Assembly (NCBI GenBank): GCA_028534125.1
Contig: CM052820.1
Span: 15,004,001-15,068,000 of the forward strand
DNA: 64,000 bases
Direction of reading: 5' to 3'
DNA from: Lama glama
Taxonomy: Eukaryota
Under the pieces are notes generated by a model. That model did not search any database. It was given only the letters and a program-made list of their open reading frames with translations, and was not told the origin of the DNA. This document shows positions 1,971 through 64,000 of this stretch, in pieces (the first letter of the stretch is position 1; each line of letters starts with the position of its first letter). The position numbers and the translations under genes were made by a program.

Positions 1971-2320
1971 CGCTGCTGCTTGCTACTTCCGCGCACGTGT
2001 CTTCTCGCAAATCGCGAGACCTCCTTCGCGGAGTCTGCCGGGAACTGTAGTTCTTAATACCTCCCAGCTTTCTAACCAAGAGCGAGGAGGTGGGACTTAC
2101 GGGAGAGCACGGGGGCGTGGCCAAGGGGTCAAGGGGGCGACTCTAAGTGAGAAGGGTAGGGCCTGAGAAGCAGAGGTTGGAATTTAAGATTAGGACCTTG
2201 AGCTGTATGGGAAAGGGCCCAGGGGTAGCAGCCAAAGTAGAGAACCAGGTCACAGGGAAGAGCGAAGCTTGAGACCTGAGGAGGTGTGGCCAGCCTTGAG
2301 GTGGGCGGGGCCAGAGTGCA
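1960..2320 (-). promoter_or_regulatory. GMPPA housekeeping CpG promoter
   Basis: ETS CGGAAG, CACGTG 1994-1999, TCTCGCGA-type (BANP-like) element about 2003-2019, ZNF143/THAP11 ACTACAGTTCCC 2051-2040, GC boxes 2111-2122 and 2303-2310. Confidence 0.75.
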
Positions 2321-2589
2321 AAGCCCCAGGAGAGGGTGGGGCTTAAAGTATACAAAAGAAGAGGAGTCAAAGGCTCTGCTATCCCGTTTGAGAAGTGAAG
2401 AAACTTCTGATCGTGAGAGAAATCCTATCTCAGATTTAACTATCTGTAAAATGAAGCATTGGATTAGGCATTCTCCAAACATTCTGACCCCAACAGTCTG
2501 TGACCTTGGCGTGTTGATCTGGAATAAGTGTGGGTGAGAGAGCATGGGGAAATGGCGTCTCAAAAGAATAGATGAGACGCGGAGTGCCA

Positions 2590-4690
2590 GAGAGAGCAGC
2601 TTTATTAAGCAAGATGAAGCAGGGTTGTCGGTCCCAACAACCCCAGAGCTTGAAGCCAGGGCGAAGTGTATGAGGGCCACTTTCTGGCCACATCCACGAG
2701 ACCGAAGCTCTGTTCCATGCTCAGGCTGTTCTCCACATACACTTCGTACTTGCCGCTGTCTTTGGTCGTGGCCCGGCGGCTGGTCAGCGTCGTGGTGGTG
2801 CTGCTGATTACCGAAGAAAACTCTAGCGGGGAAGAGGGGGATGGCAGGACCTCGAATCAGTTTACGCGCGACCTGGGCAGGAGTAATTAGCCAGCTCTGT
2901 TCTTCGCCTCCCATTTTCCCGCCCCCGTCCCACTCCTGCGTTTCTGGGCCCTGTGCCGCCCAAGCTCTGGCTCCAGGCGCTATCCTTGCAGCAGGTCCCC
3001 ACCCTCCCCTGGCGTCCTCCTCGATGTCTTCGCCGTCCTTGGTCCAGCCCACGTCCGGCGCAGGCTCGCCCAAGATCTCTGCAGTCAGCGTAACCGTGGT
3101 GACTTTGCATGCCTTTGTGTCATTCGGTCCCTTCTGAATCTTCGCCGGGACTAGAGGAATGGAAAGGGAATGCGACCCATTGAGGCACCTAGAGATAAGA
3201 TGAACAGGAGCATCACTCCCCGGCTAATAGCCGGCTCTAAATACAAAATGGATTTAGGCTGGCTGTGTGACGTTGGACAAGTCTTTAGCCTCTTTGGGGC
3301 TTCAGCTCCTCAACTGTCAAACAGGACTAATCCTGCCCCTCAAGTTGAATGGAGGAGCAAAAGAGATACTACAGGGTGAAAGCCCAAGAATATTCACACA
3401 TCTCGCGGTGATTTGGAAATCGCCCTGGGCAGGGAGCCAGAAGACTAAAACTCTAAACCTGGCTCTGCCTCTGACTCGCTGTGACCCTGGGGCCCTGGGG
3501 TCTAGTGACTGAAGCCCATAGCGGACTTCTTAACCTGGATGGAACAGGATCCTAGGGTAGGAAAGGGCCACGGGCGGCCTACGCTGCACCCTGGTCTGTG
3601 TCTCGAGCTGTGCTGGGTCTGGGCCACATCCGCGTCCGAACTGAGTGAGGCCCGACGGTAAACGCGGCTGGACCCGGCTAAGCGCCTGCTGGGTGGTGCT
3701 GTTCTGCGCGGTGGCACTGCACTCCGGGCGCGCGTACCTTCCACGAGGATGCGCGCCAAGTCGGAGCACTGGCCAAAGTGGTTGGTTACGTTAATGCTGT
3801 ACTGCCCCAGGTCTGCCAGCACGCCATCGCTCACCACCAGTGCGACTACGTTCGGGTCTCTGAAGACATAGCGATACTTGGGCCCGTCGCGCAGCTCCTT
3901 GCCATCCTTGCTCCAGTGGATGAACGGGTCCGGGAAAGCCGAAGCGGTAAGTCAGCTTGGCCGCGCTGCCCTCAATCAGCACCACATCCTTCAGCGGCTC
4001 CAGCAAACGCGGCGGCCTCTTCCCGCGCAGTGCCTTCCGGGACCTAGCCGGAGGCGGGTTCAGGGCCCAGAGCTCCCATGACTCAGTTCTGACCCCTCGC
4101 AGTTCTATACATCCATACATGGTCCCCTGCCGATCCCCTCGGCCACTAGACCTTTAAACATGGGGGAGGGGCAGCCACTCCTAAATTGTTACCCTGATAA
4201 AAGTATCTACTCTGTGGGCCACCCTTTCACACCTCAGTAATTGCTCTTTCCTAAGTCCAGTGACCCTAGCGGTACATGACACTATGCTCGGCCCTCCTCC
4301 ATCCCCTAAATGCAAGGATGAGCGTTCTGCAGCTCCAGTTCCCTTTCCCCGGAAGCGGGTTCTTCAGGCCTCCCCCTCACCTGTGGCCGCGGTAAGAGGC
4401 CTGATGCTAGTGGCCACGCTCTGGACCTGGGGGGTCGTTGATATCCACGGGACATCCCGGAGGCCGGGCTGCAGCCGCTGGTTTTTTGGCAGGAGCTGCT
4501 TTGGACATCTGGGGAGCAGAAAACAAAGAAGGGGGTCTAGGCTAACACAGGACTCTGACCTTCAGCCTTTTCCCTGCAGGTTCAGAACATCCCCTGAAAT
4601 GGGTGTGTCTAGACTCACCGTGAAGGGACTTGGGTCGACTAACTGGGTAGCAGGTGGCACGGAGCCCTTCCAGATGGCACAGCAGGATCA
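2590..4690 (-). pseudogene. SPEGNB: SPEGNB (SPEG neighbor; IQ plus 2 Ig) unitary pseudogene; exons about 4690-4619 (non-coding), 4508-4381, 4043-3738, 3150-3009, 2822-about 2590
   Basis: MSKAAPAKKP..., QASYRGHRSRK, KDVVLIEGSAAKLT, GEPAPDVGWTKDGEDIEED and DSGKYEVYVENSL are recognisable, but there are frameshifts, an in-frame TAG, a GG donor and a lost stop. Confidence 0.85.
2601..2606 (-). terminator. SPEGNB polyadenylation signal AATAAA
   Basis: About 80 nt downstream of the ancestral stop position (2685-2683). Confidence 0.65.
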
Positions 4691-17714: not shown

Positions 17715-17783
17715 CTGCCACCTCCGCCGGGAGAGGAATAGCTTTAGGTGATCCGTGCTCACCTCTGCGCCCTTTGCCTGTGT
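17715..17783 (-). CDS. SPEG: SPEG exon 29
   Basis: [23 protein letters not shown], 69 nt. Confidence 0.95.
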
Positions 17784-18819
17784 CTGCAAACCAGGAAAGA
17801 GTGCCTGAGGGAAAGTCCTCTGTCCACCCTAACCCTCCAAGTTTGGCAATGGAGAGACAATGCCCACGAGAGGGGACAGTAGACCAAGCAGCATTGAGTC
17901 TGCGTTCCTGGGGCTCCCTTTCCCCTCGGATCTGTCATAGCAACTCCCACGATCAAGGTACCCATGTATGGACAAATGCCCTGAACCTAAGTGGAGAAAT
18001 AGGAAACCAGTGGCTCCAGGGGTGGGCTCTAGAGCTTATACCAGAGCTCAAGGCCCTGTCCTGGTCTACTGGCTGCCCTGGGAGACCCCTGGCTTGAACC
18101 CTGCTCCCCAAGTCACCATTTGTCTCCATCTAGAGCCAGCATCCCAGACATATGGAGTCTGGTGGGCCAGCCTTTGGAGGTGCTGCTCAGCGCCCACCCA
18201 GGTTACTCTTTTCAGAACTTATTTCTGAGCTGAGAGATCAGGCTCCTCCTCCAGGGACAGATACCAGAATGACCTCAGCCTTCTGTTGACCCAGCACCAT
18301 GCTCATTGGATGATTTATTCAGTTACTCTTTCTGGCTCATTTGCTGAACCCCTCCCTCTGCCTGGCACTGTGCCCTGTGGTGCTGGGGTTTGAAGATGAA
18401 TAAGTGAGAGCTCTGCCCACACAGAGCTCAAAACCAAGAGGACAAGCCAGCCAGGCCACCCACCAACCACAGTATGTGGGACCAGGGCAGGATGGAGGAA
18501 GGCCACAGGAGTGCGGAGGACTGGGGCTGGTCTCAAGAGACAGGGAGAACCCTGATGAGGATCCCTAGGATGGGGAGGTCCAGACCTGTGCCTTGGAGTC
18601 CATGATACCCCAAGCTGAGCCTCAGTTTCCTTATCAGCAAAATGGAAGTAATAATACCTTCCTTTACAGAGCCATTGTGAGACTAACAGATCATATGTAA
18701 ATAAAATGCATTATCATGGTTACTGTACACAGTAGGGACTCAATAATTGGAGCTGTTGATAAAGTTCTCTCTCCTTCCACCTCTTCTACCACCACATTGT
18801 GAGACAAGACTCACTTTAA

Positions 18820-18905
18820 TCTTTTTTTTAATGGAGGTACTGGGGATTGAACCCAGACCTTGTGCATGTTAAGCAGGTGCTCTACCACTGAGCTATTACC
18901 CTCCG
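18820..18905 (-). mobile_element. tRNA-derived SINE (Vic-1-like) with 15-bp TSD
   Basis: A box TAGCTCAGTGG, B box GGTTCAATCCC, A-tail; TSD CAAGACTCACTTTAA at 18805-18819 and 18906-18920. Confidence 0.9.
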
Positions 18906-18915
18906 CAAGACTCAC

Positions 18916-18958
18916 TTTAAACCACGGATGTTCTAGGGTCTCCTCTGCGGTAGGTCTC
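18916..18958 (-). CDS. SPEG: SPEG exon 28 (end of kinase 1)
   Basis: LRPTAEETLEHPWFK, 43 nt; donor AAA|gtgagt. Confidence 0.94.
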
Positions 18959-18989: not shown

Positions 18990-19021
18990 TTCATTCATTC
19001 ATTCATTCATTCATTCATTCA
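18990..19021. repeat. (TTCA)n microsatellite, intron 27
   Basis: Directly visible. Confidence 0.9.
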
Positions 19022-19154: not shown

Positions 19155-19307
19155 AGGCGGTCCTGTACCAGCACTTTGATGAGGAAGCCTCGGGCCTCCC
19201 TGCTCAGGCTCAGGAATGTGGTCTCCTCGAAGGCCACGTTGTAGTTTCGGATGTTCATCAGCGTCGTCCGATCGTTTTCCCCAACAAATGGGGAGATTCC
19301 CGTCAGA
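19155..19307 (-). CDS. SPEG: SPEG exon 27
   Basis: [14 protein letters not shown]...KVLVQDR, 153 nt. Confidence 0.95.
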
Positions 19308-19988
19308 CTGTAGGGGTGGAGAGGGCTGGGTGAGAGGGGGCAGGGTCCTGGGGCTGGGGCAGAGACAAAGGTGGATGCCAGGGGAGCATAGGGCCAGGGA
19401 CAGATGGAGGCACCAGAGCTGTGGGGCAGGCAGAGGCGGGGTGAACCTGGGCAGAATCTTGCAGATTCTTGCCTGCCCTGCCCCTATCCAAACCCAGGAA
19501 TGGGCGGGGAGGCAGTAATGCCTTGAATCCTGGGCAACCAGGTCCTTCTCCTAAGCCCATACTCTAGAGGACCTGTTCCATCCCTCCTCCAGCCATGCCC
19601 TTTCCCTGAGGTGAGGAGTCTGTGCCAATGGGATATGCCCCAGGAGCCAGGGCCTCCCCCTCCTAGTCTGTGTTCTGGACTAGTTCCCTGCCTAAATGGC
19701 ACTGAGCCTGCACTGGCCTCTCCCTGTCCTGCCTCCCAAGCACGCTGCCAGTGTGCCCGCTCTTATGGAGGGGCGTGGTGGTGGACAGAGCTTGGACACA
19801 CAGTCTGGATGTCCACATTCATGCACATGAGGCCCCTTCCAGTGCAGGAAGGAGCCACAGTATGGAGGAGAAAGGGGTGGGCTGCAGGCCCCCAGCTGCT
19901 CTCTTGCCCCAGGTTCTGCAAATGTTAGCAGTGGACCTGCTTGGAGACTGTTAGAAGACAGGGGTCCTGAGTGCAGAGGGGTCCTTAC

Positions 19989-63883: not shown

Positions 63884-64000
63884 GGGGGGAGGGTGTAGCT
63901 CAAGTGGTAGAGTGTATGCTTAGCATGCACAGGGTCTTGGGTTCAATCCCCGTACCTCCTCTAAAAATAAATAAATAGACCTACTAATTACCTACCCCCC
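63884..64000 (+). mobile_element. tRNA-derived camelid-type SINE (Vic-1-like), truncated by window end
   Basis: GGGGGGAGGGTGTAGCTCAAGTGGTAGAG...GGTTCAATCCCC...AAATAAATAAAT. Confidence 0.85.

Follow-up and report, generated by a model that had tools for sequence, protein, structure and literature searches.

A tRNA-derived SINE with a duplicated 5' splice site behind exon 28 of camelid SPEG: an old insertion with probable use of the upstream donor

In the 64-kb window (the whole stretch of Lama glama DNA that was analysed), SPEG lies on the minus strand, and a tRNA-derived SINE is inserted in sense orientation directly behind its exon 28. The 15-bp target-site duplication (TSD) of this SINE contains the whole 5' splice site of the exon, so that two identical donors, henceforth referred to as donor 1 (upstream) and donor 2 (downstream), lie 101 nt apart (Table 1). 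On predicted donor use we consider it probable that donor 1 is used almost exclusively, that normal SPEG is made and that this old insertion of the L1 type is near-neutral. Neat as its arrangement is, the insertion at SPEG is most likely an ordinary one.

Table 1. Features around exon 28 of SPEG, in the order in which they are transcribed (positions of the window)
Feature	Position	Strand	Details
SPEG exon 27	19155..19308	minus	154 nt; kinase 1; next intron 196 nt
SPEG exon 28	18916..18958	minus	43 nt; AG acceptor; kinase 1 end HPWFK; final codons TTT AAA
Upstream TSD copy	18906..18920	minus	contains donor 1, AAA/GTGAGT, GT at 18915
SINE	18905-18820	minus, sense to SPEG	86 nt; tRNA-derived; starts at intron position +11
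SINE head, tRNA-like	18832..18905	minus	A- and B-box-like stretches
Weak cryptic donor	18899	minus	+16 nt; frameshift
Weak cryptic donor AAG/GTCTGG	18861-18853	minus	GT at 18858; in frame, +57 nt; would add 19 residues behind kinase 1
SINE tail	18815..18832	minus	short, A-rich (A8); two ATTAAA hexamers, starts 18832 and 18820
Downstream TSD copy	18805..18819	minus	contains donor 2, GT at 18814; TGA 18813-18811
SPEG exon 29	17715..17783	minus	69 nt; in frame, post-kinase 1 segment

Exon 28 is the 28th coding block when dromedary SPEG isoform X3 is mapped on the window, a count that agrees with the exon number given in the original prediction, and it is flanked by introns of 196 nt upstream and 1132 nt downstream. 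The Pfam Pkinase profile match spans positions 1-263 of 263 and ends at HPWF. Since this match reaches the end of the profile, kinase 1 is complete before the exon 28 junction. A CaM-binding motif has been predicted after SPEG SK1 (PMC7957886), which would place this motif in exon 29. Within the 196-nt intron a GAAT/TTCA microsatellite (18990-19021) precedes the acceptor of exon 28 by about 30 nt, and a change in its length could shift branch-point spacing.

The tRNA origin of the SINE was evident from two predictions: ARAGORN called a tRNA in the head (18903-18832), and the head matched the Rfam tRNA family RF00005 with 44.4 bits (E 1.7e-8), while the remaining Rfam matches in the scan of the window were all under their gathering scores. 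We did not retain the tRNA-Val identity that ARAGORN assigned to this head and read it as the mutated anticodon of a tRNA-Ala-type head, given that the second copy of the family has AGC. This second copy, the only other one within the 64 kb, is 83.5% identical over 85 nt (63888-63970, plus strand). In full it occupies 63888-64000, with a head read by ARAGORN as tRNA-Ala(agc), a longer TAAA-repeat tail and an extra 3' part that reaches the window edge, where its TSD is not visible. In contrast to the second copy, the one in SPEG is missing the longer 3' part, and its tail is very short; the second of its two ATTAAA hexamers (18820) crosses the join between tail and TSD. By host and structure the SPEG SINE is a probable vic-1 element, an assignment made by description; vic-1 was reportedly first described by Lin et al. 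in 2001. The likeness lies in the camelid host, in a tRNA-like head joined to an A-rich tail without a body, and in the tRNA-Ala(agc) reading of the second copy. SINEBase names vic-1 as a camelid simple tRNA-derived SINE (PMC3531059), and the name is absent from the available part of the text of PMC6675863.

The two TSD copies, identical at 15 of 15 positions, form the only complex exact 15-mer repeat with a spacing of 60-200 nt in the window. The repeat consists of the last 5 exon bases and the first 10 intron bases of the exon 28 boundary, and donors 1 and 2 are thus the same from -5 to +10. Because the duplication spans the donor, the exon was left intact, and the whole of exon 28 and of the region from -5 to +10 around donor 1 is untouched. 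The bases TT/AAAG at 18920-18915 fit an L1-endonuclease site of the TT/AAAA-like kind, and the sense insert has the orientation expected for the nicked strand. The exact nick position is uncertain by 2 nt; had the nick been the canonical TT/AAA one, the actual TSD may be just 13 nt long. The L1-endonuclease target consensus, a TSD range of 6-17 bp and second-strand cuts about 7-20 bp downstream are described in PMC3219598. In addition to its TSD and endonuclease site, the element has a tRNA-like head with promoter boxes, an A tail and interspersed copies, as a tRNA-derived SINE mobilised by L1 would. The Phe-Lys codons at the end of exon 28 (TTT AAA) would have provided the TT/AAA nick site, and a staggered cut 13-15 nt downstream would necessarily have copied the donor, leaving the sense SINE in the intron at +11. 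The donor duplication would accordingly be mechanical, a by-product of where the cut fell. These results reproduce the arrangement set out in the original prediction (a tRNA-derived SINE in sense at the boundary of exon 28 and its intron, a 15-bp TSD with the whole donor, and identical donors 101 nt apart), and bear out in part its proposal that the TSD rescued an otherwise damaging insertion: with a far shorter duplication the SINE would have landed within the exon or its donor, but we read the duplication itself as mechanical. We also considered the identity of the TSD copies as a sign of selection on donor 2 and dropped it, since such identity has a chance probability of 0.21-0.75 at assumed divergences of 1.5-8%. 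Separately, an 11-nt direct repeat (18673-18683 and 18795-18805) has one copy that adjoins donor 2 and forms an arm of the hairpin predicted for this donor.

The insertion is likely older than the split between the camelid tribes, and family-wide, as judged from protein and not from DNA. The SPEG protein encoded in the window differed from alpaca SPEG by 2 mismatches in 1934 residues and from Camelus SPEG by 14 in 1730 to 19 in 1934, in a comparison that took in 35-36 exons and omitted the large exon 30 along with three others; the window is accordingly alpaca-like, as expected of a South American camelid. A search with the peptide that runs from exon 28 into the SINE gave 2 matches among 12 candidates, both of them Bactrian camel RefSeq models (XP_045368043.1 and XP_045368044.1), which translate the SINE and differ from the window at 2 of the 34 residues of the extension. 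Ten of 41 short mammalian SPEG proteins reach HPWF, and whereas eight of these pass into the next exon and are uninformative on the intron, the other two are the Bactrian models, the sole ones that enter intron sequence. Since the SINE is found both in the window and in the Bactrian camel, the insertion probably predates the split of Old and New World camelids, which has been dated to 11-25 My ago (PMC4884201), and one ancestral event is the simplest account. An element common to both would be old and probably fixed, which goes against a recent or narrowly lineage-specific origin; the SINE is also a candidate family-level marker for Camelidae. Orthologous outgroup DNA with an empty site was not found: of 598 stretches from a protein-based scan of metagenomes none was confirmed, and a degenerate motif scan returned two loci, both unrelated open frames with flanks unlike those of the window.

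Several indirect lines of evidence favour donor 1 as the probable site in use. Equal-strength donor pairs behind exons with a short upstream and a long downstream intron (the SL class) show a heightened upstream preference, as set against one of just ~60% for equal-strength pairs genome-wide (PMC9225289). With introns of 196 and 1132 nt exon 28 belongs to the SL class, and the upstream donor 1 is therefore predicted to be favoured. In exon-defined minigenes with identical donors the upstream one was used exclusively, these constructs having 365-nt flanking introns and donors much stronger than that of exon 28 (PMC9225289). As expected for donor 1 use, the normal exon 28 junction was present in 120 of 123 SPEG proteins (the other three being the two Bactrian read-through models and one protein without the motif) and in all five full-length camelid models. 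The donor-2 junction was seen in none of the 123 proteins, none of the 41 short proteins and neither of the 2 matches among the 12 candidates for the extension peptide, all of these being homology-guided models in which NMD-bound transcripts would not show. In folding predictions, the stretch from -3 to +6 had an unpaired probability of 0.12-0.16 at donor 1, 0.002-0.020 at donor 2 and 0.024-0.072 at a modelled empty site, although these differences are small and, in the minimum-energy folds, the SINE head also base-pairs with donor 1. A predicted hairpin, GTGAG..CTCAC, joins donor 2 with the intron sequence after it; donor 2 is still followed by the original intron sequence, which is able to fold back on it, and is predicted to be the less accessible of the two. 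The short upstream and long downstream intron would thus favour the upstream donor, the small hairpin would further damp donor 2, and NMD would clear any leak. We discarded one further measurement as uninterpretable. Of 24 sequencing runs, 20 contained part of the stretch; several RNA-type runs had word shares of 0.16-0.17, about the exonic share, and one had 0.21, a value that could reflect the extension but just as well words from intron or repeats.

The physiology of SPEG also constrains the choice of donor. Human SPEG disease is inherited recessively, and in mice knockout of the gene is lethal around birth (PMC8199188, PMC9118044). For this reason a dominant donor 2 could not have been fixed, and enough normal message must remain, although recessive inheritance may allow as much as about half of it to be lost. 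The locus is a natural experiment in an essential gene, in which two donors, identical over 15 nt and 101 nt apart, have probably both been kept for more than 10 My behind a 43-nt exon, with every wrong choice a frameshift; it could serve to test the cross-exon proximity rule at a native site.

An alternative is that a substantial share of transcripts is spliced at donor 2, which would exonise the SINE, shift the frame, elicit NMD and leave camelid SPEG output lowered or tunable. Translation of the donor-2 product gave a stop-free extension followed by the frameshift peptide KHRQRAQR*, which ends at TGA 17761-17759 in exon 29, upstream of many later junctions, so that the protein would end just after kinase 1; in these respects the original prediction was reproduced in full. 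In addition to its identity with donor 1, donor 2 would enlarge a 43-nt exon with a modest donor (6.7 against a gene median of 9.2 on a crude matrix built from 33 sites, with 4 exon ends without a call and some picks approximate) to 144 nt, and the Bactrian protein sequence would allow for donor 2 still being present in that copy. When all alternative donor pairs are taken together there is a downstream preference of ~60% (PMC9225289), and the recessive inheritance of SPEG disease gives room for partial loss. Against this stand the SL architecture and the identical-donor minigenes, the lower predicted accessibility of donor 2, its missing junction in the protein sets and the lack of any sign of selection on it. 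The open frame adds little to the case: we dropped the stop-free 33-codon extension as a sign of function given that its chance probability is ~0.21. We therefore regard sizeable use of donor 2 as unlikely, and the suggestion that it tunes SPEG dosage or yields a single-kinase isoform as unsupported so far, with the donor-2 junction absent from all 123 and all 41 proteins, the upstream donor favoured in the SL class, and a product that, as an NMD target, would be a poor source of single-kinase protein.

A single-kinase protein could more plausibly arise by read-through to the TGA within donor 2, combined with the ATTAAA signals, than by splicing at donor 2. Here exon 28 would be an optional composite last exon: both donors would be skipped, 34 codons would be read through to the TGA, and cleavage after the tail ATTAAA would give an NMD-immune, kinase-1-only SPEG without the predicted regulatory tail. 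The two ATTAAA hexamers of the tail account for 2 of the 7 sense-strand copies in the 54-kb coding span and have TGTG just downstream, yet ATTAAA is the weaker signal and the T content of the region downstream is just 13%. Two U1 sites lie either side of the signals, and U1 sites beside poly(A) signals would suppress cleavage. The read-through frame is open in both camelid tribes, an openness that has the same chance probability (~0.21) as given above. Both Bactrian RefSeq isoforms end, with KKRLK, exactly at the TGA inside donor 2. However, at 431 and 348 aa they are missing the N-terminus too, and a full-length Bactrian SPEG model located on a contig of 105 Mb shows the normal junction. For now we have set these models aside as proof of an isoform, because they are probably fragments produced by gaps. 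Kinase 1 is complete at HPWF and the predicted CaM-binding motif comes after it (PMC7957886), and instances of SINE-derived and of composite intronic poly(A) sites have been documented (PMC2553571), but SPEG is reported to be without a single-kinase isoform (PMC8199188). On balance this route is improbable. An equally doubtful extension of it is that the SINE acts in all camelids as a switch at the end of kinase 1, in which the TSD gives the stop, the tail gives the poly(A) signals and donor 2 is an NMD drain, with an NMD-immune single-kinase SPEG in muscle, without the predicted CaM-binding segment and kinase 2, as the outcome. Were read-through and polyadenylation to take place, camelids would possess a SPEG with kinase 1 alone, of a class that other mammals are reported to lack, with a bearing on the regulation of the two SPEG kinases.

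It is very unlikely that the insertion weakens exon 28 in some other way, by skipping of the 43-nt exon or by use of the cryptic donors in the SINE head. Skipping and cryptic sites are the usual outcome of exonic and splice-site insertions in NF1 (PMC3219598), and the cryptic donor with GT at 18858 scores 5.2 against 6.7 for the exon 28 donor (crude matrix), but exon 28 and its donor are intact. Furthermore, this cryptic donor loses its -1 G in the Bactrian camel, as implied by the peptide (K to N, codon 18861-18859), and the 19-residue insert that it would produce was seen neither in the 123 SPEG proteins nor in the extension-peptide search of 12 candidates. That the structure is an assembly artefact is scarcely credible, since an independent assembly of another species, the Bactrian camel, translates the same insertion with two substitutions, and the TSD, tail and tRNA head are all as a real insertion would have them.

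The insertion can be set beside several known systems. In the canine merle allele, as in SPEG, a tRNA-type SINE with a 15-bp TSD sits at a splice boundary (PMEL intron 10/exon 11) with competing sites and partial exonisation possible (PMC7349775). However, merle is antisense, on the acceptor side, polymorphic and recent, uses a cryptic SINE acceptor, preserves the reading frame and produces a phenotype (PMC7349775), whereas the SPEG SINE is sense, on the donor side, old and frameshifting, with two identical sites and without a known effect. The L1-endonuclease-dependent insertions in NF1 share the target consensus and the TSD size range, and one of them sits 3 nt ahead of the end of an exon, but these were de novo and all disturbed splicing (PMC3219598). 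For the insertion near the exon end, the 6-nt TSD was made up of exonic bases alone, and the insert split the exon from its donor (PMC3219598), whereas in SPEG the donor is still attached. Introners resemble the SPEG insertion in that a TSD provides a splice site, but differ in creating a new intron and in being mostly DNA elements (PMC9860276). In contrast to an introner, the SPEG SINE has no used acceptor and adds only a second donor to an old intron; it lies wholly within that existing intron, the junction of which is conserved in 120 of 123 SPEG proteins, and is not removed as a new intron. A search for papers that join SPEG, camel and SINE, or that report a donor duplicated by the TSD of a SINE, found none in a literature from which most subscription papers fell outside. 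TE-derived composite intronic poly(A) sites (PMC2553571) offer the last likeness, in that the 3' end of the sense SINE gives ATTAAA ahead of a position, close behind a donor, where cleavage could occur; compared with those sites, the one in SPEG has a weak downstream element and is a candidate by sequence only.

Three further observations concern the surrounding locus. Four dromedary SPEG models split 2 versus 2 as R or C (VQDRL/VQDCL, at ~19159), 3 bases from the exon 27 donor, a difference that is either a polymorphism or an assembly difference. Exon 29 contains a consensus-like internal donor, GAG/GTGAGC (17765-17757, minus strand), which overlaps the frameshift stop. Downstream of SPEG and on the same strand, coding pieces resembling Ig domains (2129-3223, minus) probably belong to the neighbouring gene SPEGNB.
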